NCBI GenBank assembly: GCA_049976445.1
Contig: JBMFIF010000003.1
Span: 3,629-67,628 of the forward strand
Length of the DNA stretch: 64,000 nucleotides
Reading direction: 5' to 3'
Origin: Thermoprotei archaeon
GTDB lineage: Archaea; Thermoproteota; Thermoprotei; Gearchaeales; WAQG01
Made by a program: the position numbers and the translations under genes. The notes below the pieces were generated by a model. The model made no database searches. It had not been told where the DNA came from and saw only the letters and a program-made list of their open reading frames with translations. Shown piece by piece: positions 45,837 to 64,000 of the stretch. The first letter of the stretch is position 1; every line of letters begins with the position of its first letter.

Positions 45837-47474
45837 TTACAATTGTATTTTGATGATAGGAATAATTAAGAGTGATAATAATGCTAATATAATTGTTACA
45901 ATAACTAAAAATGTGCTTTTTACTGTTAAGTCTTTAGCTTTAGATATTAATAGTGAGATCCCAAATGATACTTCAATAACAATAATCTTGATGTTGTCCA
46001 TCATAACATTTAAATCGTAATATTGCATAGATTGCATCAGACTAAGGGAACTATTCCACATCATTGCGTTTATATTTGAAAGAGTATATGTTAACGTGAT
46101 CATTATAGTGAGTATTATAGGTGTTAATAATGCTAAGATTTCATAGAGTTTAAGACTACTTTTTGCTTCAGCCTGACTCTCTTGAACATATATTATGTAT
46201 TCACGTATTCTTTCGATAATCATAGGTGTTCCCCCACCTCGTGCATTAAGTTCTCCGATCACATACAATACGTTTTTAAATAACCTGCTTTTGCATTTAG
46301 GAACGGTTTGATTCAGAGGTATGCCCATGTTCATTTGACTTGTTAAATCATCAAGAATATAATCAACTCTAGAACCAAATCCCCTAAGTTTAGCTATTGC
46401 TTGATCTAGTGAAATGCCAGCTTTTCTAGCATCTGTTAATGATAGTAAGAATGCCGGAAGCCAACGCTCTTCTTCATCGATTTCTTTTAATAATTTTCTT
46501 GTAGGAATATAAATTATTAATGAACTAACAAATATAGCGATACCTAACGATATCCATAGAGTAAAAAATTGAAAAATAATCATGAACGTTAAAATTCCTG
46601 CTAAAATTCCCCAAACAGGGTTTACATTTATAATATTTTTATCAGAGGGAGATGACATATCCATCAATAAAATAGACAGAATTGTGGATAATGGTATGAT
46701 TATAATACCTGTTATCATTATAAATAATACTGCATTACTAGGAAACATGATTGCAGTTATTAAATTTAGAGCACTAGTAAGCAGAAATACTGAAAGCAAC
46801 AATTCGCCCCAATCACTAGCATGTTTAGAATACGATATCCAGCGTTGTTTATATTTATTCAGAAATTCTTTCATTTTATCTTCTAAATATTTGCTTAACT
46901 CACCACCACTTTTTATTATGCTTGTTATTCCTAACATATAGCGTTCCCATTCTTTTGATGGATGATTCACACTGTTTGTGTCTATTGATTCAAAAATGTT
47001 ACCAAAAAATAGTATAGTATCTCTGATGATCTTTTTTGCTTCTTTACTAATGTATTGAAATTCATCACGTTCAGAAATTTCATAAAGAACATCAGCTAGT
47101 CTAACACCTAATTCACCTACTGTCGCCATAAACATTGAAAAAAGGGGGAGTTCATCACTAACACCCTTTTTCCTCATTATTATTTTACTGTATATACTAA
47201 CTTCATACAATGATAATAAAATAAACGGCAATAATAGAACAAAAAGAGCAATGAAAATATTATAGTAATAAAATAATATTGAAAAGCAACAAAATGATAT
47301 TATTGAAGCTAAAAATAAATTTCGCATAATGTTACGAACATAATTATTTAGATCAACATATAATAAAGCTTTGTCAATTGATCTTTTTATATGTAAATAA
47401 TATTGCGTGAAGAGTTTATTTTTCATAAATTTATTCAATAAATTATCAAATAATTTATCCACTATGTTCACCAT
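45837..47474 (-). CDS. type IV pilus/archaellum-family polytopic membrane platform protein (FlaJ/PilC/TadC-like)
   Basis: 545 aa with two repeats of a cytoplasmic helical domain followed by TM clusters. Directly downstream of the secretion ATPase, overlapping it by 20 nt. Confidence 0.7.
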   Translation of the reverse strand: MVNIVDKLFDNLLNKFMKNKLFTQYYLHIKRSIDKALLYVDLNNYVRNIMRNLFLASIISFCCFSILFYYYNIFIALFVLLLPFILLSLYEVSIYSKIIMRKKGVSDELPLFSMFMATVGELGVRLADVLYEISERDEFQYISKEAKKIIRDTILFFGNIFESIDTNSVNHPSKEWERYMLGITSIIKSGGELSKYLEDKMKEFLNKYKQRWISYSKHASDWGELLLSVFLLTSALNLITAIMFPSNAVLFIMITGIIIIPLSTILSILLMDMSSPSDKNIINVNPVWGILAGILTFMIIFQFFTLWISLGIAIFVSSLIIYIPTRKLLKEIDEEERWLPAFLLSLTDARKAGISLDQAIAKLRGFGSRVDYILDDLTSQMNMGIPLNQTVPKCKSRLFKNVLYVIGELNARGGGTPMIIERIREYIIYVQESQAEAKSSLKLYEILALLTPIILTIMITLTYTLSNINAMMWNSSLSLMQSMQYYDLNVMMDNIKIIVIEVSFGISLLISKAKDLTVKSTFLVIVTIILALLSLLIIPIIKIQL

Positions 47475-49050
47475 ATAATTTTATTGAGATCTCTTCTAGC
47501 ATTTCGTTTTTATTATTAAATGATTTTACTGATAGGTTTTGTAGTATGTTTTTTCTTCTTTCCAATTCAGAAACCATATACTCTTTGCTCCAACCCTTAA
47601 TATTGGCTATTCGTTTCATTACATTACTTATCTCAACTAGTTTTTCTGTTGTTAAATCGGTTCCATATTCGTATATTACTTTTGGTATAATATTTGTGCT
47701 TGATTCTTCATATAGTTCTTCTATGGAATAAAGTACTCTATAACCAGGATTAATCTCTCTCATGTTAATAAACGCTGAAATCAATAGTATAAAGCTTGGT
47801 TCAATATTAAGTGGAGGACTCTTTAGTCTAAGAATTGCGGACCTAGCACTATCTGCATGAAATGTTGTTAAACCACCATGTCCAGATGCTACTGCATGAA
47901 CTAATGCTTGGGCTTCACGACCTCTAACCTCTCCTACTATGAGCAAATCTGGTCTTCGTCTCCATGCAAATTTAGTGAGCTCAAACAAATCAATCTCACT
48001 TACTTCTTCACCGGGTAACGCCTTCCTTGAAACTAACCTATCCCATTGAGAATGTGGCGCAAGGATTTCCGGAGTATCTTCCACAGTTACTATTTTCCAA
48101 TCAAGTGGCACAAGTTCTAATAGTGCATTAAGCATAGTAGTTTTACCAGATGCTGTAGGCCCTAAAATAAAAATACATCCACGTGTTTCTAAAATTAACG
48201 ACAAATATGCAGTAGTAAGAGGAGTAATACTATTTTGTTTAATAAGATCAACAATCGATAATCTTTTAGATGGAAACTTTCTTATAGTAAAACTATGTCC
48301 CCATGGTGTCACTTCATTACTATACGTTACAGCAGCTCGGTGACCTTCTGGAAGTAGTACATCAGAAATTGGCATTGCAAATGATAAATATCCTTTACCA
48401 CGTTGAACTATTTTTTGCACTACTAAAAACGCTTCAGTCTCATCAAGTATTATGTTCGTGGGTATCCATTTCTTATAATTAGAGACTATTCTATGGACGA
48501 CATAGACTGGCTTATTAGGACCAATCATGGAAAGCTCCTCAACATATTCATCTCTTAAAAGAACATTTAACGGACCATATCCAAAAACATCTCTCTGAAC
48601 ATAATACATAAATGCAGGAAAGAACTCTAGACTTTTATCATTATCAATCTTTAAAGATTTAATAGCATTCCAAATAAGTTCTTCAACATATTTTTTAAGA
48701 TCATCATGCATATTCTTAATAAAAGGTTCTGGTTGTGCTGAGTAATATATATACTCAATAATTTTTACTATACTAGCCTTTGCTTCATCAGAAAGCTCTG
48801 GCTCTTTCACAGCATATAAATTAGGATAAACAATGACTGATGCGGAATCTATTTGATAATTGATGATAGGATCTTGAGATTCAAAAATCATTTCATCTTG
48901 CCCAAGAATCTTCACTGAACCCCATTTCCAAACACGTCTCATTACCTTGTTAATATTATCATCTTTATTCTCATTTTTACTAAATTTTTGTAAAAAAATT
49001 AATTTTATTTTCTTCATGAATACCAGCCTGAAATCATTGAGCCACAACAT
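47455..49050 (-). CDS. type II/IV secretion-system ATPase (FlaI/PilB/VirB11 family)
   Basis: Walker A ILGPTASGKTT, Asp box, Walker B LIVGEVRGREAQ and His box, in a ~530-aa protein. Confidence 0.8.
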   Translation of the reverse strand: MLWLNDFRLVFMKKIKLIFLQKFSKNENKDDNINKVMRRVWKWGSVKILGQDEMIFESQDPIINYQIDSASVIVYPNLYAVKEPELSDEAKASIVKIIEYIYYSAQPEPFIKNMHDDLKKYVEELIWNAIKSLKIDNDKSLEFFPAFMYYVQRDVFGYGPLNVLLRDEYVEELSMIGPNKPVYVVHRIVSNYKKWIPTNIILDETEAFLVVQKIVQRGKGYLSFAMPISDVLLPEGHRAAVTYSNEVTPWGHSFTIRKFPSKRLSIVDLIKQNSITPLTTAYLSLILETRGCIFILGPTASGKTTMLNALLELVPLDWKIVTVEDTPEILAPHSQWDRLVSRKALPGEEVSEIDLFELTKFAWRRRPDLLIVGEVRGREAQALVHAVASGHGGLTTFHADSARSAILRLKSPPLNIEPSFILLISAFINMREINPGYRVLYSIEELYEESSTNIIPKVIYEYGTDLTTEKLVEISNVMKRIANIKGWSKEYMVSELERRKNILQNLSVKSFNNKNEMLEEISIKLYGEHSG

Positions 49051-49483
49051 TTACTGATACTGTTGTATTTTGATTATTCACATGAGTGAATTGTAATACA
49101 ATCAAATATTTTTGACCAGAATAGAAAGTTCCAGAAACAATTTGCGATATACTTTTCTGTTCACCCGAAAGGATGGAAACGTTTTTTATTGTTGTTACAT
49201 TCACAGGAGTACTAGCTTGACTATAGATAGTAATTTTGGTAAGATTAGCATCGTATGTGCCTTGATTTTGGATTGTTAATTGTAGAAGTGCTGCTTTATT
49301 TCCTTGGAATGTTGTTAATGATGCATCGCTTATGAAGATTAGTGATTTGTTTGTTATATTAGATGCAGATGTGAATAGTGTTCTATAGACCATAAAGGAT
49401 CCTGCTATTGCTATTCCTATTAGTAATAGGGCTGCAATTATTGTATCGGCTCCTCCCCTTTTGTTTTTATATACTTTTCTCAT
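49034..49483 (-). CDS. archaeal type IV pilin-like protein (class III signal peptide)
   Basis: MRKVYKNKRG-GADTIIAALLLIGIAIAGSF has a charged leader, a Gly cleavage site and a hydrophobic helix, then a beta-rich S/T/N/Q-rich domain. Confidence 0.6.
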   Translation of the reverse strand: MRKVYKNKRGGADTIIAALLLIGIAIAGSFMVYRTLFTSASNITNKSLIFISDASLTTFQGNKAALLQLTIQNQGTYDANLTKITIYSQASTPVNVTTIKNVSILSGEQKSISQIVSGTFYSGQKYLIVLQFTHVNNQNTTVSVNVVAQ

Positions 49484-49711: not shown

Positions 49712-50662
49712 ATGAGTTCGAGTGATGTGCTTCGTGAGGAGGTTAAAGATATTAAGTTGGGAAGTAATTTGAGTGTTTATGATTTGGTTAGAGAGTTGGG
49801 TTCTGCTGGTGGGTTTATGGCTACTCATCTTTATGAGGCTGCTGAGATATTGTATGAAATGAGTAATGATAAGGATTGTTATAGGATAATATCATTTACT
49901 GGGAATCTTATTTCTACTGGTTTACGCGGTGTGATAGCTAAAATGATTGGTGATGGTTTGTTTGATGCAATAATAACTACTGGTGGCGCGCTTGATCATG
50001 ATGTTGCTAGGGGTTTTGGCGGTAAGTATTATAAGGGTTTCTTTAATGCGGATGATGTAATGCTTTTTGAGCTTAATATTCATAGGCTTGGTAATGTGTT
50101 TATTCCTGTTGAGAGTTATGGTCCTTTGATAGAGAAGGTTATTTTTAGTATTCTTGATAGTTTGCCTGAAGGAGAATACTCACCTTCTAGAATAGCGTAT
50201 GAAATTGGGAAGCGTATGAATGATGAATATTCATTTTTGCGTCAAGCTTATTTGAGAAATGTTCCAGTTTATGTACCTGGTATTGTTGATTCAGCTGTGG
50301 GCACTCAACTTTTCTTTTATTCTCAAACTCGAAAGATTAAGTTAAACATGTTCGAGGATATGAAACGTATACTTGATAGTATTTTTGAAGCGAAGAAGCT
50401 AGGAGCTTTGATAATTGGTGGTGGGATTAGTAAGCATCATACAATATGGTGGGCTCAGTTTAAGGATGGATTAAATTATAGTGTATATGTGACTACTGCA
50501 TCTGAATATGATGGAAGTTTATCTGGTGCTCAACCTCGTGAAGCAATCACGTGGGGTAAAATAAATCCTAAAGCAAAACATATAACTCTATATTGTGATG
50601 CTACTATATGTTTACCTATAATTGCGCAGTATGTTTTTGAGAAAAAAGTTAGAGGTGTTTAA
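49712..50662 (+). CDS. dys: deoxyhypusine synthase
   Basis: 316 aa. DHS signature regions (TGGALDHDV..., IIGGGISKHH). Confidence 0.8.
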   Translation: MSSSDVLREEVKDIKLGSNLSVYDLVRELGSAGGFMATHLYEAAEILYEMSNDKDCYRIISFTGNLISTGLRGVIAKMIGDGLFDAIITTGGALDHDVARGFGGKYYKGFFNADDVMLFELNIHRLGNVFIPVESYGPLIEKVIFSILDSLPEGEYSPSRIAYEIGKRMNDEYSFLRQAYLRNVPVYVPGIVDSAVGTQLFFYSQTRKIKLNMFEDMKRILDSIFEAKKLGALIIGGGISKHHTIWWAQFKDGLNYSVYVTTASEYDGSLSGAQPREAITWGKINPKAKHITLYCDATICLPIIAQYVFEKKVRGV

Positions 50663-52858: not shown

Positions 52859-52962
52859 CATTTTCGGTGTACTCTCAGACTACTATTCTTATGTATATTC
52901 ATGTATGCATTTTTTTAGCTTTGTTATTTTATATTATGAATCATTAATATTAAGGGAGAATT

Positions 52963-54012
52963 GTGAATAATCTAAATGTAGAAGGTGGAGTTTGCGATAA
53001 GTGTGGAGGTAAGATTATAAAGACTCCAGAAGGAGAATTCGTGTGTTCAGAGTGTGGACTAGTGAAAGGCCATGAGTTTGCAGAGCCTAATTACACAATT
53101 GCACCAATGAAAAGTGATCATGTAGGTTATGTTTCTCATGTTTATGCTGATAATATGTCATTAATTTATGGAGTTGGAAGTAATATAAGTCGTAGGAGTA
53201 CGAAAAAGAATTTTAACAAGTCATCCATGGGAACCTTAATTACTCATGATAAAAAGATCAAGTTAGAGAAAACTAAGCAAATTATTGAAAAAAGAATACT
53301 CAATTCTATGGAATTTGTTGCATCTCGTCTTAATATTCCTGATGATGTTCTTAGACGTTCTATTATAATATATGCAAAGACTATTAGAATTATGAAAAAG
53401 GATAAAAAACGAATTCCAGGTGTTAATAAATATGCGCTCTCTGCTGCTTCATTAATTGCAGCTATATGGGAAGCAGGCAATATTAAACCATTTACGTTGG
53501 TTGAAATAGCTAGTTTTTATAGAGAACTTGGGCATCGTGTAGATAGCCGTAATATTGCATGGGCATTAATACAGACAAGAAAAATAATACAACGGAATAT
53601 AACAATTAAGGAAAGAATAAGAGTTTATATAGACCGAATAACAGCGATGTTATACTCTAATACTTTTATACGCATAAAAATACGATACATGCGCAATAAG
53701 ATAAATCTAAGTACTTATGTTCAAAAGATCAAGGAAAGAGCATTAAAAATTCTAGATTCACTTGATCAAAACGTATATCAAAGTAAAAATCCATATATAA
53801 TAGCAGCTTCATTAGTTTATATTTCAGAAAAAATGTTAGCTTCCGAGTTAAAATTTCGTTCTCTTCTTTCACATAAAGTTCTTTCAATAACTATCGGGAT
53901 TTCAGATTATTCAATTAGAGATAATGTACAAGCAATACTATCTTACCTAGGTATAAAAATTGATCTATCTTCTAGAGGAATTATAAGAAGTGCATACCCT
54001 AACGTATCATAA
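52963..54012 (+). CDS. divergent TFIIB-like paralog (zinc ribbon + two cyclin-like folds)
   Basis: CDKCGGKIIKTPEGEFVCSECG zinc ribbon. Cyclin-like segments (ALSAASLIAAIWEAG..., IIAASLVYISEK...). Much more divergent than the canonical tfb at 32760. GTG start. Confidence 0.6.
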   Translation: MNNLNVEGGVCDKCGGKIIKTPEGEFVCSECGLVKGHEFAEPNYTIAPMKSDHVGYVSHVYADNMSLIYGVGSNISRRSTKKNFNKSSMGTLITHDKKIKLEKTKQIIEKRILNSMEFVASRLNIPDDVLRRSIIIYAKTIRIMKKDKKRIPGVNKYALSAASLIAAIWEAGNIKPFTLVEIASFYRELGHRVDSRNIAWALIQTRKIIQRNITIKERIRVYIDRITAMLYSNTFIRIKIRYMRNKINLSTYVQKIKERALKILDSLDQNVYQSKNPYIIAASLVYISEKMLASELKFRSLLSHKVLSITIGISDYSIRDNVQAILSYLGIKIDLSSRGIIRSAYPNVS

Positions 54013-54422
54013 ATCCTAATAATAATTTTATAGAAAATTCCTATATAATTACTTATTATAACATTTATTTTTATTGTTTCTATCTTAATAATTATAATAT
54101 CGTTATCATCTATTAATGAGTTATTATAAAAATTGATGGCAGAAACTATGAGCAATACGAATCCCTCCTTAATTTCAGTAAGATTAGTAAAAGAATTTGT
54201 GTACACTATTCTTGTTAGATAATTCTTGGTGTTTATTTTTATATTGTTTATTATGGAGTATGATTCTAAATAAATAATTTTTCTTACATACATTTCATCA
54301 TAAATTGGACGCAGTTTGGTGTATTCTGATTGCATATTAAACATGACTAGTACTAGGAAAAGGATTTGTAAAGTCACTATGACCGCTTTTTGATTTCTAT
54401 GTATTACCATAGATTTCAACAT
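53943..54422 (-). CDS. small N-terminally anchored protein (pilin-like/minor filament component candidate)
   Basis: Short N-terminus then hydrophobic helix AVIVTLQILFLVLVMF, then a beta-rich I/N/Y-rich domain. Extremely AT-rich codon usage. The track ORF overlaps the TFB-like gene 3' end, so the true start is uncertain. Confidence 0.3.
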   Translation of the reverse strand: MLKSMVIHRNQKAVIVTLQILFLVLVMFNMQSEYTKLRPIYDEMYVRKIIYLESYSIINNIKINTKNYLTRIVYTNSFTNLTEIKEGFVLLIVSAINFYNNSLIDDNDIIIIKIETIKINVIISNYIGIFYKIIIRIYDTLGYALLIIPLEDRSIFIPR

Positions 54423-54762
54423 TTATATCACCACATGATATGGAAATTACTGGAATTTGCACATGTTTCTCATTACTTTTAATTATTATTTCGATGTGAT
54501 CATTACTGTTTATAATTTTTATTGGATACTGCATATCTAATAACTTGAGTATCTCATTTAGCGTAATATTTTTGCATTGAAAGAGTTTTTCATTGTGTAG
54601 AATTTTTTGTTGCAGTATAAAATATTTATAATAATTTTGAAATACTTCTTGTTTGTTAGATAATGTCTGTGGTGTTATATATGTTATTGTTATTGTGGTG
54701 AGGAGTAGAAGTGATATAATTAAGTCTAAAATAGGTATTGAATCAATGTTCATAGTAATCAC
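54397..54762 (-). CDS. small N-terminally anchored protein
   Basis: MNIDSIPILDLIISLLLLTTITITYI hydrophobic N-terminus and a ~90-aa soluble tail. Confidence 0.3.
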   Translation of the reverse strand: MITMNIDSIPILDLIISLLLLTTITITYITPQTLSNKQEVFQNYYKYFILQQKILHNEKLFQCKNITLNEILKLLDMQYPIKIINSNDHIEIIIKSNEKHVQIPVISISCGDINVEIYGNT

Positions 54763-54906
54763 TTAATCTAATAATATTAGCTAATGAGCTGTTCTGTATA
54801 TCACTTATCAATGAATTGACAATATTAATTTGTATAGTAATTAAGTATATGAGTTGTATAAATATTAAAAGAAACAATATAATTATCAGTATAATATTTT
54901 CTGTCA

Positions 54907-55284
54907 TTAACCCTCACTCACTACTATATAGTTATCTATGTACGAAAATGTATAGTGTTTGTTGGTTTCTAATATAATTTTCTTAAATTTCACATCAGAC
55001 TTAAAAGTAAATGACATGGAGTTTATATTAATTATTATGGAGTTATCTTCTAAATATATTAAAATATTATTGGTGAAGGATTTTATTGAAATTTTAATAC
55101 TTGCATTTAAGGTTTCTGCCAGATAACCTGCATCATTAACTTGAGAATAAATTGCTACTGCTTCTGTTTTTGCTATTGTCATGTAAAGCGAGTTTATGCT
55201 GATGGTGTTTATTAATATGAGAATTGTTGATAAAGAGATCCATGCAATTATATCCATGTAGGATTGAATTAAGCGTTCTGGCAT
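54907..55284 (-). CDS. small N-terminally anchored protein
   Basis: MDIIAWISLSTILILINTISI hydrophobic N-terminus and a ~95-aa beta-rich tail. Divergent from the plus-strand operon that starts at 55366. Confidence 0.3.
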   Translation of the reverse strand: MPERLIQSYMDIIAWISLSTILILINTISINSLYMTIAKTEAVAIYSQVNDAGYLAETLNASIKISIKSFTNNILIYLEDNSIIININSMSFTFKSDVKFKKIILETNKHYTFSYIDNYIVVSEG

Positions 55285-55365: not shown

Positions 55366-55602
55366 ATGAATGTTAGTAAGAGTGATATATTGGTTTGGGG
55401 GTTACGCATAATTTTTGATGAGCTAAAGGAAATACAGAGTAAATTGACAGAGTTAGAAGATAGAGTACGTTCTTTAGAGGATTTGACTACTAGTTCGCTT
55501 ATGTTGACATCAATTTATCGTATTGAATATGTTAAGTGGTATACTATCTATGTGTCTAAGATTGAGGATAAGCTTATGGAGGCTAGAATTTCATGTCGAT
55601 GA
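55366..55602 (+). CDS. small coiled-coil protein
   Basis: 78 aa with a heptad-like central region. First gene of the plus-strand operon. Confidence 0.3.
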   Translation: MNVSKSDILVWGLRIIFDELKEIQSKLTELEDRVRSLEDLTTSSLMLTSIYRIEYVKWYTIYVSKIEDKLMEARISCR

Positions 55603-55991
55603 GAGTTACTCTTGAAGATTTAGCTTTACTTATGGTTAAGAAAGGTGTTTCTCCAGATACTGTTAAAGAACTTTTAACAGAACTAGGAGCTACAAAGGAA
55701 CGTATAGATAAAATTATGGATACTCTTCCGAAATCAGAAATCGTTGAAGAAAAGAAAAGTAAAATTAATGAAATAAATCAGGATAGAATTGCAAAAGAAT
55801 TGATGGCACTATCATTTGAGGTTGTTAAAATTAAGAGTAATGTAGAAATACATAAATCAAGGATAGAGGGACTAGAAACTCGTATTTCAAGTCTGGAAGC
55901 TCGTTTTGAGGCTCTCTCAAACATTCTAGTAGAATATGCTCCATTTCTTTTCAAGAGGGATAAGGATAATGCTAAATCAAATGTGCAGTAA
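55593..55991 (+). CDS. coiled-coil protein
   Basis: 132 aa. Helical, heptad-rich C-terminal 60 aa. Overlaps its neighbours. Confidence 0.35.
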   Translation: MSMRVTLEDLALLMVKKGVSPDTVKELLTELGATKERIDKIMDTLPKSEIVEEKKSKINEINQDRIAKELMALSFEVVKIKSNVEIHKSRIEGLETRISSLEARFEALSNILVEYAPFLFKRDKDNAKSNVQ

Positions 55992-57675
55992 GTCATGCAA
56001 AATTGTGGATGAAGGTAGCACATTACGAGTTTACTGTCCTCATGATTTTCATGTTTTTGGTCTTGAAACAAATAGAGAATGCAGAGAAAAGGTCTTTTCA
56101 TCTATATCTGATAATACTTTTTCAATAATAATGGAAAATGGAATTATTAACAAGACTTATAAGAAAAATGTTAAAGAATTATTTAATTATATCTCATTGA
56201 TTAATATTCACTTTGATAAGATCAAAATGCAGAATATTTCTAAAGATGAATTAATTTATGATCCTGTATTATTACGTTCAGCATATTCCTCTAATGATCT
56301 TATGAAAACTTGGATTTATAAACGTTCACCATTTTTTAGAGAACTTACTGATTACTTTGCAATGAACTATACTGATCACGAAATTTATGAATGGTTATTT
56401 GAACCATACGTGGATTATTGCAATGGATTTAGATCCATAATAGACTCTGAAAGGATAAATGTATATGATGTGAATGTAGGTTTTGTGAATATTTATGATC
56501 ATGACAGTCACTGTTTTTATATAGTTGATGAGGTTTCTAGAAAACCTAATGCTCAAGATTTTTTAGAAAAAATGTTGTGGTTAATCGTAACTAAAAGTAA
56601 CAATTTGAGTAAGATCATGGTACCTTTATATGATAATCATGTTCAAGAGATGTATTTAGATGGAGAGGATAAGTTTATTTATTTGGATCATGAAGAGTAC
56701 GGTAGATGTTCTACTAACATATTTATTACGCATCCTGATATTGAAAGAGTAAAGACTTACGCTAGTATTATAGGTAAAGGCAATGTTAGTCTATCAAATC
56801 CATCATTAAAAATGGATATTACACTCAATGGTATTCCTCATAGGTTTTCTTTAGATTCGCCACCGTTAGTTCTAGCAACATCATTAAACATTAGAAATTT
56901 AACTGTACAATATATGAACATACAAAAGCTAATAAAATCTGATACTATAACGGCAGAAGCTATGGCATATCTTATTTTTCTTGCTATGAATAGACTGAAT
57001 ATTGTAATTTGTGGAGAACCAAATAGCGGTAAAACAACTCTTGCAAATGTTATTGATTCAGAATTACCAAAAATTTGGCGTAGGATTTATATTGAAGATG
57101 TTGTAGAAAGTCTTAATTTAAAAGATAAAGATGTTCATCAAATAAAAATCCAAACAACACCCTTTGAGCAAGGAGCTAAGGTTTTTAGAAAGAGTACTGA
57201 AATAGTTAAGTTATTGCATAGGTCACCAGATTGGATTTACTTAGGTGAGATACAAACAAAGGAACATACAAAAGCTATGTTTCACGCATTTTCGATGGGT
57301 TTAAAAGGCATAGCTACAACTCATGCAGCATCTATTGAAGGACTTTTTTACAGATGGACAAAACATTATATGATTGATCCAAATAGTATACGGCTCATTA
57401 ATGTAATCGTTTTAATGGAACGTGAAATCACAAATTCAGGTAAAATTATAAGATATGTGAAAAATATTGCAGAAATTGATAATAATAGTAATCCTATAAT
57501 CATTTTTAACAGAGTTAATGGTAAGCTTGTTAGAACTATAAATTCGCTGTTTGATTCACAAAATATAAAGAATCTAATAATGAACGGAAAAAGCTATGAA
57601 GAAATTAAAACTCTTCTTCTTAATATTTTAAATAAGATTAATGGAGGTATTATAGATGAAGAAATCTACCAATAA
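55969..57675 (+). CDS. secretion-system ATPase (VirB11/FlaI/TadA family) with a ~330-aa N-terminal extension
   Basis: Walker A ICGEPNSGKTT, Walker B/Asp box WIYLGEIQTKE and His box ATTHAAS in the C-terminal third. Possible starts at 55936, 55969 or 55984. Confidence 0.75.
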   Translation: MLNQMCSKSCKIVDEGSTLRVYCPHDFHVFGLETNRECREKVFSSISDNTFSIIMENGIINKTYKKNVKELFNYISLINIHFDKIKMQNISKDELIYDPVLLRSAYSSNDLMKTWIYKRSPFFRELTDYFAMNYTDHEIYEWLFEPYVDYCNGFRSIIDSERINVYDVNVGFVNIYDHDSHCFYIVDEVSRKPNAQDFLEKMLWLIVTKSNNLSKIMVPLYDNHVQEMYLDGEDKFIYLDHEEYGRCSTNIFITHPDIERVKTYASIIGKGNVSLSNPSLKMDITLNGIPHRFSLDSPPLVLATSLNIRNLTVQYMNIQKLIKSDTITAEAMAYLIFLAMNRLNIVICGEPNSGKTTLANVIDSELPKIWRRIYIEDVVESLNLKDKDVHQIKIQTTPFEQGAKVFRKSTEIVKLLHRSPDWIYLGEIQTKEHTKAMFHAFSMGLKGIATTHAASIEGLFYRWTKHYMIDPNSIRLINVIVLMEREITNSGKIIRYVKNIAEIDNNSNPIIIFNRVNGKLVRTINSLFDSQNIKNLIMNGKSYEEIKTLLLNILNKINGGIIDEEIYQ

Positions 57676-58183
57676 GATAAACAAGGTCACTATTAACGAA
57701 GGATCATTTCTTGCATTGATTTCACTCATGTTACAAATTAGAGATACAAGGTCTATGTTAGAGCGTATTAAAAATTATTATCTTTTAGACAGAGATCGAC
57801 AATTTCTAGTGGAAAAAATTAGTGAGGGACATGATCCAATTAAAGTACTTAATTCTATTAGCGTATTTAATAATTTAGACGTGACTTCGACTTATCTTAA
57901 TTTGTACTCTTCACACGGTATAACATCTACTGAACGTTATAATGTCCAAGAATTAGCATTCCTAAAAACTTCAGGGTATTTAAAAGATCTTACTAATAAA
58001 CTTACATTGCGTATTCTCGTTATTACATTTTTAAGTTACATTGTGCCTGTTGCATTAGCAATTTTTTCTATTAAATATGGGCTGATAGGTACAATATTAT
58101 TTTTAGGCATTTTAATTATATTTACGACTTATATATCCTTAGATACTAAGAGAATGATTCTTCTGCTGAGGGATGTTAAATGA
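57656..58183 (+). CDS. half-size platform-like membrane protein (TadB/EpdJ-like candidate)
   Basis: ~110-aa soluble helical N-terminal domain followed by 2 TM helices. Gene order ATPase-membrane-membrane. Confidence 0.4.
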   Translation: MKKSTNKINKVTINEGSFLALISLMLQIRDTRSMLERIKNYYLLDRDRQFLVEKISEGHDPIKVLNSISVFNNLDVTSTYLNLYSSHGITSTERYNVQELAFLKTSGYLKDLTNKLTLRILVITFLSYIVPVALAIFSIKYGLIGTILFLGILIIFTTYISLDTKRMILLLRDVK

Positions 58184-58779
58184 ATGATGAAATTGAAGAG
58201 TTGATGATTTATTTAAACCAAAATAGTACATTAGGTCTTGGTAAAGCACTGATGTCATATAAGCCTAGGAATAAATCCATTAAGAAAATTTATGATACTA
58301 TTATTAATATGATGTTGTTAAAAGGTCATGAACCGCAACATGTTATTAGTTATGCATCTTATTTATTACCCAGAGGAACTTTTTTGAACTATAATGTGCA
58401 AAATATAATTATTGGTGATCGTTCAGCAATATCTCGTAATATTAATTCTATTATAATTTCACGAAAAATACAGGAAATATACAGAGATTTTGAGTTGTGG
58501 TTATCATCTATGAAGATGAAAACATTTTTATTAACTATTATGAGCTCAATATTTTTAGCTGCTATGTCAAGATTACCTTTTATTTTAATTAGCAAGATTG
58601 AACATTATTCAGATTGGTTTAATTTTGTTCCATTTCTTTATGGATTTTTATGCATTACACTTGCTTTTCTTTCCTCAAACATTTATGGTGAAAAGCGTTT
58701 TACATTATTAATATCTTTACTTTCATTATTTTCCTATACAATTATGATGATAATAATCAATACACTATTTAAAATCTAA
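58180..58779 (+). CDS. half-size platform-like membrane protein (TadC/EpdK-like candidate)
   Basis: ~110-aa soluble N-terminal domain followed by 3 TM helices. 4-nt overlap with the upstream gene. Confidence 0.4.
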   Translation: MNDEIEELMIYLNQNSTLGLGKALMSYKPRNKSIKKIYDTIINMMLLKGHEPQHVISYASYLLPRGTFLNYNVQNIIIGDRSAISRNINSIIISRKIQEIYRDFELWLSSMKMKTFLLTIMSSIFLAAMSRLPFILISKIEHYSDWFNFVPFLYGFLCITLAFLSSNIYGEKRFTLLISLLSLFSYTIMMIIINTLFKI

Positions 58780-58825
58780 TTATGATTTAAATTTGTATTT
58801 AACTAAATTATCATGGTGAAAAATA

Positions 58826-59071
58826 ATGATAAAAAAGTTGTATAGTCTGATAAGAAATCGTAAAGCATCTCCACTAGTAGAAGAAGGTATGCTTCTGGGT
58901 TTAGCAGCTATAACGTTTACAGTAATTCTTAGTATCGTTTCTAATATTATTACCTCAGTACAAAACTCATCAGCTTCAATGTCATCGTCACTAAGTTCAG
59001 GTTTTACTAATTTTCTTAATCAATTAGCTGAGATACTTAATCAAATTGCAAGAGCACTAGGTATTAAGTGA
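58826..59071 (+). CDS. Flp/Epd-like mini-pilin candidate
   Basis: 81 aa: charged leader MIKKLYSLIRNRKA, then SPLVEEGMLLGLAAITFTVILSIVS, a hydrophobic helix with Glu at about +5 from a putative KA/S cleavage site. S-rich C-terminus. Confidence 0.45.
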   Translation: MIKKLYSLIRNRKASPLVEEGMLLGLAAITFTVILSIVSNIITSVQNSSASMSSSLSSGFTNFLNQLAEILNQIARALGIK

Positions 59072-59622
59072 ATATTATGATGTATGGTAAGGATGATATA
59101 ATTACTCTTTTTTCTTTATTAATTATAATTACAATAACTTTACGTTGGATAATTCAGTATATTACTTTTTTATCATATACGTTTTATCAATGGTTAATAA
59201 TATCATTTGCAATCGTTATACTAATTATCGTAATTTTAAAGCTTCTAAACAAAAACAAATTGCATGAATATGCTAAAAAACATAGCCTAATTTTAAGAAC
59301 ATACAATAAAAATCAGTATGTTTTTTCTGTAAATAAGTTAAGTATGTTAACTAATAACATTCAACCAAGTGATGAGAATCTTTTACAATTATCATCACAG
59401 CTTTTGACATTTCAATTACTTTTTTCTTTAATAATTGTGCCAACAAACGATAACGCTGAATTATATTTAATTGTATCGAAGCCAGTTAAAAATCGTTCAG
59501 ATATAGATAATTTCATTGATCAATTATCAAGTATAAAGGCTGTCTTTCATGCATACCTTGGATATGTAATTACAAATGAGCACGAAAAAGTGATGAAGAA
59601 TGAACTCCCAATACCATTCTAA
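59068..59622 (+). CDS. membrane-anchored protein (2 N-terminal TM helices + ~120-aa soluble domain)
   Basis: 184-aa ORF. 4-nt overlap with the mini-pilin gene. Confidence 0.3.
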   Translation: MNIMMYGKDDIITLFSLLIIITITLRWIIQYITFLSYTFYQWLIISFAIVILIIVILKLLNKNKLHEYAKKHSLILRTYNKNQYVFSVNKLSMLTNNIQPSDENLLQLSSQLLTFQLLFSLIIVPTNDNAELYLIVSKPVKNRSDIDNFIDQLSSIKAVFHAYLGYVITNEHEKVMKNELPIPF

Positions 59623-60799
59623 AAAAATTAATGGTGAATATTCTCACATTAAAAATATCATCAAAGTAGTAATATTTATTGATAAGTTAAAAAAGATTAG
59701 CATGAAGAATAACGAGAATATATTATTAGGTAAAATAAACGATAATGGACCATTATTTTATATTTCGAAAAATGATTTAATAAATCATATTGGTATTTTT
59801 GGTCTTAGTGGATTTGGTAAGACGACTACTTGCATGAGAGTATTAGAAGGATTAGCTAGCAATGGATATAAAATACTAGTCTTTGATTGGCATGGCGAAT
59901 ATGAACGATTTATTAAAAGTATTGACGGATATTCTATAAAGCTCGGCGTAGATGATTATGGTATAAATCCTCTCATGGTAATGATTAATAATGATATCGG
60001 TGAACATGTTGGCTTTCTTACTGATATGTTTACTGAAGCATTTCAATTATCTATGCCACAATCTTATGTTTTAAGGAAAATTTTGCTTGAGATTATATCT
60101 AAAAGCAATATACAAGGTCTTACTATTAACAGAATAATTGAGGAATTGTCTTCTAAAAAAGGTCAATACGTGTCTAATTATGAGATAGAAATTAGGATGG
60201 CGTTACTTAGAAGATTAGAACCATTAAATTATGGCGTAAGTAAAAGTATTTTTAATGCTACGAAAGTGCTTAGTGCAAATGAATTGTTAAGCAGTAACAT
60301 CTCTATAAATTTCAAAAATTTATCTGAGGAAGGGTTAAAGAGAATTGTTGCCTATACTATAATGAGAATACTTTATTCTCATGCTGTGAAATATAGTTTA
60401 GAGAAAACTGTCGTTGTTCTTGAAGAAGCTAGAAATATTATACCACAACGAAGATATGGGGATCCTCCATTATTAGGTGAAAAAATGGTCTCTGAGCTCA
60501 GAAAACATGGTGTAACGATGATAATAATAACGCAATTACCATCACAGATTTCCTACGAAATCGTAAGGTCACTTTCTTTGATAATACTGCACAGAATAAA
60601 TTCATTTGAAGAAATTCTTAATGTAACAGGATTACAAAGTATTTTAACGGAAACTACTGAGGTTACAAAGAAAGCAAGAACTTTAAATAAAGGTGAAGCA
60701 TTAATATTTTTACCATCAGAAAATACATATTACAAAGTCTCAATATTAAAATCTAATTTAATGAGTAATGATATAAATAATGAGATCATAATATCATGA
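59600..60799 (+). CDS. HerA/VirB4/FtsK-superfamily ATPase (DUF87-like AAA-like domain)
   Basis: Walker A IFGLSGFGKTTT, Walker B VVVLEEARN and a downstream IIITQLP (Q-motif) in HerA/VirB4-like order. Only ~400 aa. Overlaps the upstream gene by 23 nt. Confidence 0.6.
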   Translation: MNSQYHSKKINGEYSHIKNIIKVVIFIDKLKKISMKNNENILLGKINDNGPLFYISKNDLINHIGIFGLSGFGKTTTCMRVLEGLASNGYKILVFDWHGEYERFIKSIDGYSIKLGVDDYGINPLMVMINNDIGEHVGFLTDMFTEAFQLSMPQSYVLRKILLEIISKSNIQGLTINRIIEELSSKKGQYVSNYEIEIRMALLRRLEPLNYGVSKSIFNATKVLSANELLSSNISINFKNLSEEGLKRIVAYTIMRILYSHAVKYSLEKTVVVLEEARNIIPQRRYGDPPLLGEKMVSELRKHGVTMIIITQLPSQISYEIVRSLSLIILHRINSFEEILNVTGLQSILTETTEVTKKARTLNKGEALIFLPSENTYYKVSILKSNLMSNDINNEIIIS

Positions 60800-63129: not shown

Positions 63130-64000
63130 GTATAATGAATAATAATGAATACAAACTAATTGTGAGCTACTCCTCGATTGAAGTCGGGAGCTTTCTGCTT
63201 CACAACCCCACCTTGCCCATAGCATAAAGCTATAGGTATTGGGCGGAGCTTCACAGGCACCAAGGCCGGCACCCAACCCGCCAACCTCAAAACATTCAAA
63301 GCAGCGTATAATCACGATCAACACACCAACCACACACAGGACAAGAAAAGATATGATCTGCAAGAGTTAAATCCTCCCTAACATAACCACACCTAGCACA
63401 CGTCTTAAAAGTATCCTTAGGATCCACTATTATGAACTGCTTGCCATACTTCTCCACCTGATAACGAATGATTTCTTTAAGCTCATCAAAAGCAACATCG
63501 TACGCCTGCGATACGCCCTCCCAACCAATTCCTTAACCTTTATGTTCTCCATCACAACCACATCATAGTGTTCAGCAAACCATTTACCGAGCCTCATGTA
63601 GAGGTCATGCCTCAAATTCTTTAAGTGTTCATAAGCCCTAGCCAGCCTAACCTTCGCCTTGAACCAGTTCTTCGAGAGGAACTTCTTGCGTGAGAGAGCT
63701 CTATGAAGCCTCCTCATCTTCTTCAATGCTCTCTTGTAGGGTCTTAAGTTGGGGAAGTATTGGCCGTCGCTTGTCGTGATGAGCTTCTCAATACCAACAT
63801 CTATCCCGACGACTTTGCCAGTCTTCGGGAGTTGTGGGAACTCGTAATTCTCAACGATGAGGGATATGTAGATTTTCTCTGCTTTTGTGAGTTTAACGAT
63901 TACTCGTTTGACCTTGTTTAGTGGGAGTTCTCTGTGCACTATTACCTTGAAAGTCCCCAGTTTTGAGAGTTTTAAGTGTGTTGTTTTTTGGTTTTTGCCT
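63130..64000 (-). mobile_element. IS200/IS605-family insertion (tnpB-only type), partial. Extends beyond the window end
   Basis: GC rises abruptly from ~30% to ~47-60% at about 63150. Encodes the TnpB C-terminal half and a structured, GC-rich ~170-nt right end after the tnpB stop. Confidence 0.7.
63296..64000 (-). pseudogene. tnpB: tnpB (IS605 OrfB-family), 5'-truncated by the window edge and frameshifted near 63.53 kb
   Basis: Frame A (63430..63939) gives GIDVGI...[22 protein letters not shown] (RuvC-like). Frame B (63296..63532) gives ...[62 protein letters not shown] (RuvC-III and zinc finger). The two parts are in different frames. Confidence 0.65.

Follow-up and report, generated by a model that had tools for sequence, protein, structure and literature searches.

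A probable divergent Tad/Epd-style filament module with a possible link to DNA damage and DNA translocation in an uncultured hot-spring archaeon

The analysed stretch of DNA, a window of 64 kb, originated from an uncultured hot-spring archaeon. The other organisms bearing the locus were likewise uncultured and represented by MAGs or SAGs. Eight co-directional ORFs (ORF1 to ORF8) were located on the plus strand at 55366-60799, and an ORF check confirmed the coordinates of a sequence-only reading of the window. Adjacent ORFs overlapped by 4-56 nt, with a 46-nt gap 5' of ORF6 as the sole exception. Amino acid identities were 77-94% in the close relative L044 and 59-78% in L045, and the gene order was unchanged in relatives with ATPase identities down to 34-38%. 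The ORFs are therefore real genes and not chance ORFs. The start of the module had been placed at 55366, which proved too far downstream. The conserved neighbourhood extended 5' and took in four membrane ORFs on the minus strand (53943-55284) as well as a TFB/TFIIB paralog (52963-54012). The GC content of the module was 27-29%, slightly below the flanks. No prepilin peptidase motif was found within the 64-kb window.

The TFB paralog was encoded on the plus strand with 349 aa and was divergent, with an N-terminal CxxC...CxxC zinc ribbon (Pfam Zn_Ribbon_TF, 1e-3). It had no match to NCBIfam TFB families. A full-length homologue in L002 matched the TFIIB repeats at 1.3e-7, and the Heimdall paralog showed 27% identity (2e-31). 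The gene was located directly 5' of the operon or overlapped it in L002 to L013, and sister lineages presumably transcribe both as one unit. The 104-bp spacer 5' of the paralog contained the DDRE-like element ATTTTCGGTGTACTCTC (52860-52876, plus strand), which fitted without mismatch the 17-nt core ANTTTCRGWDTACTCWS of the DDRE consensus bound by Orc1-2 in S. islandicus (PMC6061795). It was the sole perfect match to the core in the 64 kb, with 0.01 expected per window. Every related locus, among them 12 of 12 Thermoproteota loci, had an equivalent element 90-145 nt 5' of its TFB paralog. The footprint at S. islandicus tfb3 is at a similar upstream distance (-47 to -99; PMC6061795). No DDRE was found 5' of ORF1 in the window. 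Downstream of the TFB paralog, the CedD-like gene ORF8 was followed by a Fap7-like gene and thermosome beta (NCBIfam). This order echoes that of S. acidocaldarius, with tfb3 as saci_0665, the thermosome as Saci_0666 and cedD as saci_0667 (PMC5817253; bioRxiv 10.1101/2022.12.17.520879; PMC11823120). The cedD gene SiRe_1715 ('herA1') is TFB3-dependent, and TFB3 is enriched at its promoter (PMC6101594). Synteny and the DDRE make the TFB paralog a candidate TFB3-like regulator of the module, although it is full length (349 aa) and TFB3 is truncated. Control of the module by DNA damage is slightly favoured on these sequence features. The TFB paralog, the DDRE, the tfb3/cedD synteny echo and the degeneracy of ORF8 in most of the family were all additional to the sequence-only reading.

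ORF1 (55366-55602, plus strand) encoded a soluble, helical protein of 78 aa that was 90% identical in L044 and 78% identical in L045. It was restricted to the window clade and L001, where the homologue was detected at 6e-5. ORF2 (55593-55991, plus strand) encoded a cytoplasmic protein of 132 aa with a C-terminal coiled coil and was present between the TFB paralog and the ATPase gene in all Thermoproteota loci (phmmer 1e-8 to 1e-21 in L001-L013). Its Pfam matches were weak and of the coiled-coil type only. Each of the four minus-strand proteins held one N-terminal TM helix. The first, with 159 aa (53943-54422; helix at residues 13-31 by hydropathy), was 45% identical in L045. Its N-terminus was class-III-like, RNQKA↓VIVTLQ, with KNRKA↓IIITFQ in the L045 counterpart. 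Searches of Pfam and NCBIfam gave no family matches, and the protein is possibly an accessory or minor pilin. The others comprised 121 aa (54397-54762; residues 9-27; 79% and 45% identity in L044 and L045), 54 aa (54743-54907; residues 5-23; 70% and 57%) and 125 aa (54907-55284; residues 12-30; 76% and 57%); for the last, L001 had a weak homologue (7e-4).

ORF3 (55936-57675, plus strand) encoded a secretion or filament ATPase of the archaeal GspE/FlaI class. It matched Pfam T2SSE at 4.7e-14 and the NCBIfam families TrbB (9e-19) and VirB11 (1.5e-14). In comparisons with PDB profiles, afGspE, FlaI and CpaF were all far stronger than VirB11, and Tad CpaF was more distant from ORF3 than archaeal GspE/FlaI. 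The N-terminal Cys4 domain was Zn-ribbon-like and specific to the family. Its structure model was confident, with no solved relative and no match to a known fold. An N-terminal extension of ~330 aa had been proposed; the family-specific part is shorter, ~220 aa, as shown by an afGspE alignment that began at position 145 of the profile, with the canonical N-domain C-terminal to the extension. Judged by the homologues, the true start is probably M12 (55969). ORF3 was 43% identical to the Heimdall ATPase, compared with 28% to the Ups-like ATPase of the same window.

ORF4 (57656-58183, plus strand; 175 aa) and ORF5 (58180-58779, plus strand; 199 aa) each encoded a helical cytoplasmic part followed by C-terminal TM helices, two in ORF4 and three in ORF5 by hydropathy, and ORF5 carried an LLKGxP motif. 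Positional homologues were present in eight of eight chained loci. The two proteins showed weak mutual homology (hhalign probability ~70%, E 3e-5). Close relatives of ORF5 were P0204-P0208, and a Heimdall protein of 208 aa was weakly linked to it (probability 12%). Of the split platform suggested earlier, the two small membrane proteins in the expected position were retained; a T2SF fold was not demonstrable, with no Pfam T2SSF signal across 44 family members, no sequence match in the PDB and an AF2 model with pLDDT 49. Position, topology and mutual homology make them putative half-platform proteins.

ORF6 (58826-59071, plus strand) encoded 81 aa with one TM helix by hydropathy, and its earlier description as a mini-pilin with Glu near +5 was upheld. 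A basic leader up to RKA was followed by SPLVEE, a hydrophobic helix and a short amphipathic C-terminal helix. The site RKA↓SPLVEEG, with Glu at +5, was nearly invariant across the family. The family motif K(K/N)(K/R)(R/K)(G/A)↓SP(I/L)xEE with the hydrophobic helix was invariant in both Thermoproteota and Heimdall/Thor archaea (short form KxKR[G/A]↓SPxxEE), where it was shared by proteins of 58-74 aa. ORF6 was the best-conserved small protein of the locus, at 1e-16 to 1e-22 where ATPase identity was ~35%, and a Flp-like prepilin with Glu+5 was present in or near every locus. Pfam Pilin_N gave sub-threshold matches in 8 of 20 family members (best 1.1e-3). The Thermoproteota proteins were helix-loop-helix; the second helix was missing in Heimdall. 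The sequence of ORF6 classifies it as a Flp-like prepilin whose leader is of the class-III type.

The organisation had been likened to Tad/Epd rather than classical crenarchaeal loci. This held for the Flp-like pilin and for a type-IV-filament-like layout that is not one of the classical loci, whereas the ATPase did not follow Tad CpaF. A distinct Ups/Bas-like locus was present at 45837-49483 of the same window. Altogether, a filament-type machine is likely. A repurposed type IV filament remnant without a filament, with ATPase, membrane proteins and TFB paralog acting in transcription or membrane signalling, is unlikely. A transcription- or membrane-signalling-related role has been proposed for subclade 4D of Pyrobaculum/Thermoproteus (Makarova 2016). 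The linkage of TFB paralog and ATPase across two phyla, the greater similarity of ORF3 to Heimdall than to the window's Ups-like ATPase, the lack of a detectable T2SSF signature in ORF4/ORF5 and the novel Zn-ribbon-like N-domain would fit such a role. However, the strong conservation of the Flp-like prepilin and its Glu+5 would be difficult to account for if neither a filament nor a pseudopilus were assembled, 4D ATPases are of different architecture with 335-343 aa, and an N-domain profile search found no 4D-type proteins.

ORF8 (59600-60799, plus strand) encoded a P-loop ATPase of the HerA/FtsK superfamily with 399 aa, in agreement with its earlier assignment as HerA/VirB4-like. Walker A (GLSGFGKTT), Walker B (VVLEEA) and ITQ were intact. 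Pfam matches were DUF87 (5e-17) and TrwB_AAD_bind (2.7e-4), and a weak TrwB DNA-binding-domain signal recurred among the relatives. The closest NCBIfam family was CedD (1.2e-43, model positions 179-516 of 527), with HerA next (6e-12). With 150 bits, where the family cutoff is 600, ORF8 is therefore not a CedD equivalog. CedD is a VirD4-like ATPase of Sulfolobales that is essential for DNA import (PMC11823120, PMC11868833). ORF7 (59068-59622, plus strand; 184 aa) held two N-terminal TM helices by hydropathy and a soluble part, matching in length and topology the 178 N-terminal CedD-model positions missing from ORF8. The overlap of 17-23 nt between both genes was kept in L044, L045 and L001. No sequence homology was detected between ORF7 and the N-domains of longer ORF8 relatives. 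ORF7 is a putative membrane-anchoring partner of the CedD-like ATPase, possibly its split N-part. No type IV filament locus with a HerA/FtsK-superfamily ATPase as a member was found in the literature, in line with the sequence-only reading.

A type-IV-secretion-derived, Ced/Ted-like DNA transfer apparatus would consist of an ATPase like VirB11, a two-helix pilin like VirB2 and a coupling ATPase like VirD4. The TrbB and VirB11 matches of ORF3, the helix-loop-helix of Thermoproteota ORF6 and the CedD/VirD4-like ORF8 would be in line with it. It is nevertheless very improbable, given that GspE, FlaI and CpaF fitted the ORF3 profile far better than VirB11 and that ORF6 had a class-III/Flp leader with Glu+5 and lacked the second helix in Heimdall. 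Family searches found no VirB4/CedB-like, VirB6/CedA or CedA1 genes at the locus.

The gene order was preserved in YNPFFA-type Thermoproteota, where ORF8 mostly lacked the ATPase motifs. Walker A, Walker B and TQ were absent in seven of nine aligned lineages (L002, L004, L006, L008, L010, L012 and L013), so that the module cannot generally depend on ORF8 ATPase activity; in most of the family ORF8 is, by sequence, a degenerate pseudo-ATPase. The core of TFB paralog, ATPase, two membrane proteins, Flp-like pilin and DDRE-like element recurred in Heimdall/Thor archaea entirely without ORF7 and ORF8. The pseudo-ATPase in otherwise intact loci and the absence of ORF7/ORF8 from the Heimdall/Thor version would suit an ordinary Tad/Epd-style adhesion, aggregation or biofilm pilus that moves no DNA, with ORF7/ORF8 as a structural or regulatory ring and the TFB paralog as dedicated regulator. 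Tad/Epd pili whose pilins are head-less and of the Flp type are adhesive (bioRxiv 10.64898/2026.04.22.720090), and Ups pili themselves mediate aggregation only (PMC11823120). In contrast, all catalytic motifs were retained under conservation in the window clade and L001, the nearest family of ORF8 is a proven DNA-import ATPase and the TrwB signal is recurrent. A pure adhesion pilus is considered rather unlikely, though not to the degree of the other alternatives.

That the locus serves defence or belongs to an integrated mobile element, as had also been considered, has minimal probability. HerA-family ATPases are known from defence systems, PADLOC gave HerA/mad8 matches at ~1e-13 and the GC content was slightly under that of the flanks. 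However, the PADLOC matches were generic, housekeeping genes were present on both sides with synteny kept down to ~35% identity, and the closest plasmid or phage relative was generic DUF87 at 23% identity. No integrase, tRNA target, flanking repeats or defence partner genes were found.

The module is best read as encoding a Tad-like filament that is linked to DNA damage and may be coupled to the translocation of DNA, its function being deduced from the genes. We tentatively place it, at slightly less than even chances, among divergent type IV filament systems of the Tad/Epd style; it would be a chromosomal locus, passed on vertically and connected with the DNA-damage response of archaea. The earlier idea of coupling to DNA translocation gained support from the CedD similarity of ORF8 (1.2e-43) and the DDRE at the adjacent TFB paralog; that the module itself translocates DNA is conceivable, with the balance somewhat against it. 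Upon DNA damage, an Orc1-2-type regulator would become active and bind the DDRE, inducing the TFB paralog in the role of TFB3 in Sulfolobales, which would in turn activate the ORF1-8 operon. A prepilin peptidase encoded elsewhere would cut ORF6 after Ala/Gly, and ORF3 with ORF4/ORF5 would polymerise it into a thin pilus, with the four N-terminally anchored minus-strand proteins as possible minor or accessory subunits. A membrane-anchored, CedD-like ORF7/ORF8 hexamer may then move DNA across the membrane at cell-cell contact. The combination of a Flp-type pilus machine, a DNA-pump-like ATPase and a damage signal before the TFB gene suggests a compact, previously undescribed apparatus for damage-induced DNA exchange. 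If this is true, one locus would join the role of the Ups pilus and part of the Ced role of Sulfolobales.

The eight co-directional ORFs between 55366 and 60799 on the plus strand (ORF1 to ORF8) were found exactly as the sequence-only reading had described them. The favoured reading is a divergent filament machine of Tad/Epd style whose TFB3-like regulator is controlled by a DNA-damage-responsive element (DDRE) and which is joined here to a split CedD-like ATPase. The ORFs are real genes, because every one of them was kept at 59–94% amino-acid identity in two close relatives, L044 (GCA_038881895.1) and L045 (JGI 3300050342), and the chain also occurred in distant loci. These were the Thermoproteota loci L001, L002/L003, L004 and L006–L013, some of them from YNPFFA-type Thermoproteota single-cell genomes, where ATPase identity was just 34–38%. 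The conserved chain comprised, in this order, the ATPase and proteins of about 165, 210, 80, 130–180 and 360–400 aa. Hydropathy bore out the proposed membrane topology. The module start at 55366 was not upheld, as the conserved neighbourhood reaches further upstream. In the L002–L013 lineages, a TFB paralog (52963–54012, plus strand, in the window) abuts or overlaps the homologue of the coiled-coil protein ORF2, giving one co-directional gene string. Small minus-strand ORFs sit between the TFB paralog and the ORF2 side in the window clade (the window, L044 and L045) and in L001, with four in the window and three called in L001. Those of the window clade have one N-terminal TM helix each, are conserved at 45–79% and may encode accessory or minor pilin-like proteins. 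A Fap7-like kinase and then thermosome subunit beta follow 3′ of the module.

Between 54000 and 60000, the GC content falls to 27–29% over the module versus 31–35% in the flanks; even so, its synteny is deep and there is no obvious sign of mobility. Rfam and tRNA scans gave five tRNAs in all, and none of them flanks the module. Deoxyhypusine synthase is intact in the window (49712–50662) and called as two ORFs of 145 and 168 aa in L045:3776–4733, which reflects a frameshift or else a misassembly. Two adjoining ORFs at 63296–63939 on the minus strand resemble the halves of a disrupted IS200/IS605 TnpB/OrfB, a RuvC-like part followed by a CxxC...CxxC zinc finger. In L045, the corresponding position behind the thermosome gene is occupied by an intact OrfB_IS605/Cas12f-like gene of 494 aa.

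ORF3 is a secretion ATPase, as had been proposed, with a Pfam T2SSE match (4.7e-14) that exceeds the gathering score. With a profile built from 16 family members, the PDB matches were ranked afGspE (1e-32), FlaI (8e-25), CpaF (5e-16) and VirB11 (2e-9). The ATPase is thus nearer to afGspE and FlaI than to CpaF, and an assignment to the CpaF/TadA clade of Tad-type ATPases had to be dropped. The N-terminal extension is present, but its family-specific part is about 220 aa long and not about 330 aa. The true start is probably M12 at 55969. The domain at residues 12–232 (55969–56631) showed a confident predicted fold (pLDDT 86) with four conserved Cys and no structural relative in the PDB. The core of ORF3 shared 40–44% identity with the ATPases of Heimdall/Thor loci versus just 28% with the Ups-like ATPase of its own genome. 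Many ORF3 homologues carried a precomputed match to PF27713 (UCP018868).

Among the small proteins of the locus, ORF6 (81 aa) is the best conserved. At the N-terminus it reads K(N/K)(K/R)(R/K)(G/A)↓SP(L/I)xEE, the arrow marking the predicted cleavage site, with a basic leader, (G/A)↓S, Glu at +5 and a hydrophobic TM helix at residues 24–42. By its predicted processing, this is a class-III/Flp-type prepilin signature. The earlier description of a Flp-like mini-pilin therefore stood, with a head-less pilin and the pattern G↓xxxxE[Y/E] at the cleavage site predicted from sequence. The mature protein would be about 40 aa long in Heimdall and about 62–65 aa in Thermoproteota. Pfam Pilin_N gave sub-threshold matches in 8 of 20 ORF6-type proteins, and Pfam Flp_Fap matched none of the ORF6-type pilins. 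The prepilin peptidase (A24) motif G[GAS]GD[VILAM]K was present in no frame of the 64-kb window; the gene normally lies elsewhere in archaeal genomes. The ORF6 signature and the secretion ATPase are consistent with a module that would form a pilus.

ORF4 and ORF5 are placed where platform genes sit and are weakly alike (hhalign probability about 70%). Their agreement with a platform lies in position, topology and a G-x-P helix motif only. No T2SSF domain (PF00482) was found by Pfam in 44 ORF4/ORF5-type proteins, even at E<=10, and the ORF4/ORF5 profile had no sequence match in the PDB. Alignment with hhalign to the window's own T2SSF protein was not significant, and no T2SSF homology was gained when the Heimdall membrane proteins were compared in the same way. 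A search with the concatenated profile returned five close relatives of ORF5 only. AlphaFold2 prediction of fused ORF4 and ORF5 without an alignment reached a pLDDT of 49, unusable for fold comparison. Of the proposed two-gene platform, position and topology were thus retained, and a T2SSF domain was seen with none of the three methods (Pfam, PDB, hhalign). ORF4 and ORF5 are referred to as putative platform proteins.

A separate, canonical Ups/Bas-like locus lies 6 kb upstream at 45837–49483 on the minus strand. It encodes a pilin with the N-terminus KNKRG↓GADTIIAALLLIG (UpsA, 1e-6), a FlaI/BasE-like T2SSE ATPase (1e-31) and a T2SSF platform protein (UpsF, 2e-62), all scoring below the equivalog cutoffs. 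Because of this locus, the module is a second, divergent filament module of the genome. It is not a classical crenarchaeal locus, being neither Ups, Aap, Bas nor archaellum, as the sequence-only reading had stated. With the Tad (Flp) pili of bacteria and the Epd pili of methanogens, which form archaeal TFF system 1, it shares a short, head-less pilin whose leader ends in Gly or Ala and which has Glu at +5, a platform function apparently split over two genes and a hexameric secretion ATPase. The Flp motif is G↓ATAIEYGLI, whereas that of the family here is G↓SPILEEGLL. In contrast to Tad and Epd, the ATPase carries the novel 220-aa N-domain, the membrane proteins are without a detectable T2SSF domain and there is no dedicated EppA/TadV peptidase, secretin, TadZ or TadE/F at the module, while the TFB paralog, the coiled-coil protein and the CedD-like unit are added.

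The closest published description is that of the archaeal T4P subsystem 4D of Pyrobaculum/Thermoproteus (PAE2119-like, arCOG05558/05557/05559), described by Makarova, Koonin and Albers (2016) and in a preprint by Sivabalasarma and Albers (2026). Both systems combine, in one predicted operon, a secretion ATPase with a Cys-rich N-terminus, one or more unclassifiable small multi-TM proteins and a lineage-specific TFIIB homologue. Subsystem 4D has a 4–5-TM protein and, unlike the module, neither a pilin nor a HerA-like gene. Its ATPases are 335–343 aa long and lack a C-terminal domain, whereas those of the present family measure 548–579 aa. A profile search with the ORF3 N-domain in representatives of 1.84 billion proteins yielded only six cluster representatives: four measured about 550–570 aa and one 496 aa, the sixth was a 95-aa fragment, and 4D-sized proteins were absent. 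The TFIIB linkage is therefore common to both, and the length and architecture of the ATPase and the presence of a pilin set the module apart from PAE2119 as described.

The last gene of the chain, ORF8, encodes a HerA/FtsK-superfamily ATPase (DUF87, 5e-17), in agreement with the HerA/VirB4-like assignment made earlier. The best curated family by far was CedD (NCBIfam, 1.2e-43), 30 orders of magnitude ahead of other families. ORF8 covers only positions 179–516 of the 527 in the CedD model, the C-terminal two-thirds, and is not a CedD equivalog, as its 150 bits lie below the cutoff of 600 and the TM part is encoded separately, by ORF7. ORF7 has two TM helices and a soluble part, matches in size the missing N-terminal part of CedD and overlaps ORF8 by a conserved 17–23 nt. 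Sequence homology of ORF7 to the N-domains of longer ORF8 homologues was detected by neither phmmer, hmmsearch nor hhalign. A role as the HerA helicase of double-strand break repair was contradicted by the HerA_Thermprot score of 44.7 bits versus a cutoff of 800, and NurA, Mre11 and Rad50 are not neighbours at the locus.

The ORF7/ORF8 unit varies between lineages. The positional homologues of ORF8 at L002:11581–12732, L004:11450–12583, L006:5756–6862, L008:12514–13650, L010:12419–13489, L012:12577–13728 and L013:12401–13504 lack Walker A, Walker B and TQ motifs, with the other blocks kept. This pseudo-ATPase family is conserved at 356–383 aa and had no Pfam or NCBIfam match. ORF7 has no TM helix in the motif-less lineages, and both genes are wholly absent from the Asgard version. 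As predicted from these motifs and helices, a catalytically competent, membrane-anchored unit would occur only in the window clade and L001. Because the motifs are lost or ORF8 is absent elsewhere, the function of the core module does not generally need ORF8 ATPase activity. The CedD similarity of ORF8 suggests that the module may translocate DNA where the unit is competent.

That the whole locus is of T4SS or Ced/Ted type was ruled out by the ATPase class, the pilin leader and the absence of VirB4/VirB6-like genes. The sequence-only reading had also considered a defence- or conjugation-related module. Among the eight proteins, PADLOC gave generic HerA/mad8 matches for ORF8 (about 1e-13) and at most marginal coiled-coil or P-loop matches for the other seven (E>1e-4), and no system-specific model set was matched. 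Searches of plasmids and phages were likewise negative or generic, and a defence or mobile-element origin is unlikely.

The regulatory link of the filament module comes from the TFB paralog, a divergent protein with a Zn ribbon that is homologous to proteins still matching TFIIB repeats. The 104-bp spacer 5′ of it contains ATTTTCGGTGTACTCTC at 52860–52876, which agrees at every position with the 17-nt core of the S. islandicus DDRE, AATAGTTTCRGWDTACTCWS, the consensus being that of Sulfolobales. It was the only perfect match in the window, with 0.01 expected. An equivalent element was located 90–119 nt upstream of the TFB paralog in 12 of 12 Thermoproteota loci; as a control, the bare hexamer occurred at that distance in 19% of ORFs. 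The tfb3 footprint of S. islandicus is similarly distant from the start codon (-47 to -99). There, the DDRE is bound by Orc1-2 and needed for the induction of tfb3, ups and ced (PMC6061795). No DDRE was present in the window before ORF1 or the Ups-like operon. The gene of CedD (SiRe_1715) is TFB3-dependent, with TFB3 found at its promoter by ChIP (PMC6101594). In S. acidocaldarius, tfb3 (saci_0665, PMC5817253), the thermosome subunit gene Saci_0666 (bioRxiv 10.1101/2022.12.17.520879) and cedD are consecutive, and the order in the window is TFB paralog, CedD-like gene, Fap7 and thermosome. The paralog is likened to TFB3 by its DDRE and the thermosome/cedD-like synteny; TFB3 is a truncated TFB made up of a Zn ribbon and a coiled coil, whereas the protein here, at 349 aa, is not truncated. 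These features suggest that the module may be induced by DNA damage.

The module thus resembles the Ups, Ced and TFB3/Orc1-2 regulon of Sulfolobales in having a TFF pilus and a CedD-type ATPase near a TFB paralog with a DDRE, in the echo of the tfb3–thermosome–cedD synteny and in the identity of the DDRE sequence (PMC6061795, PMC5817253, PMC11823120). It differs in that a single locus contains all the parts, the pilin resembles Flp and not UpsA/B, CedD is split into two genes and reaches only 150 bits with its model, and the TFB paralog is of full length. CedA, CedA1 and CedB are also missing here; no NCBIfam or Pfam match to these partners or CedA2 was found among ORF1 to ORF7, and they could be encoded outside the window.

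The core of the locus was also present in Heimdall/Thor loci (L014–L043). These "simple", core-only TFF loci encode the ATPase and, after it, two membrane proteins (about 270 and 208 aa), with an adjoining divergent TFB paralog (27% identity, 2e-31 to that of the window). A protein of 58–74 aa with a KKRG↓SPILEE motif, the GSPILEE mini-pilin, was located either beside the membrane proteins or at a distance of a few kb. The ATPase lacks the Zn-ribbon N-domain, homologues of ORF2, ORF7 and ORF8 are absent and the pilin has no second helix, unlike in the window. The published description of Heimdallarchaeia covers core components only, and a link to TFB or a pilin is not mentioned. The loci carry a DDRE-like element, AAT-ACTTTC-RGT..CT.YC, for example at L032:4961–4980 and L032:12767–12786. 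Over 1.47 Mb, the position matrix of this cis-element matched almost only two kinds of site. The first was upstream of TFB paralogs in both phyla. The second, in Heimdall and left out of training, preceded a nearby Orc1/Cdc6-family gene by 44–64 nt (L032:5005–6243, followed by an ArsR-type wHTH gene). With the published Sulfolobales consensus alone, all five matches at 18 of 20 positions in 942 kb of Asgard sequence were the TFB-upstream site. The Heimdall pair of elements, at the TFB paralog and at Orc1/Cdc6, parallels what is seen at the promoters of orc1-2 and tfb3 in Sulfolobales; the S. islandicus orc1-2 gene has a DDRE in its own promoter (PMC12490963). In the literature, no paper describing DDRE-like elements in Asgard archaea was found.

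The DDRE-like element, the TFB paralog, the secretion ATPase, two membrane proteins and the GSPxxEE mini-pilin form a core shared with Heimdall/Thor. The combination in one locus and the cross-phylum link between TFB paralogs and the DDRE are of main interest. Archaeal TFF systems of the puzzling "pilin-less, TFIIB-linked" kind here gain the pilin they had lacked, and CedD gains testable docking partners. The locus also provides a concrete evolutionary intermediate, in which the pilus machine neighbours both a CedD-like ATPase and a TFB paralog with a DDRE. It is tempting, though rather unlikely on present evidence, to regard it as having kept an ancestral, integrated DNA-damage-inducible machine for DNA exchange, with a Flp-type pilus and a CedD-type translocase under control from Orc1-2 and the DDRE through the TFB paralog. 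If so, the Orc1-2/TFB3 damage circuit, known only from Sulfolobales, would predate the TACK/Asgard split together with its coupling to pili, and the tfb3–thermosome–cedD cluster of Sulfolobales would be a remnant of that machine. The pair of TFB paralog and secretion ATPase, together with the DDRE-like element, reaches the Heimdallarchaeia, which are commonly regarded as the nearest archaeal relatives of eukaryotes. Should the regulatory reading hold, DNA-damage signalling via Orc1/Cdc6 and TFB paralogs would be much older and more widespread than documented.
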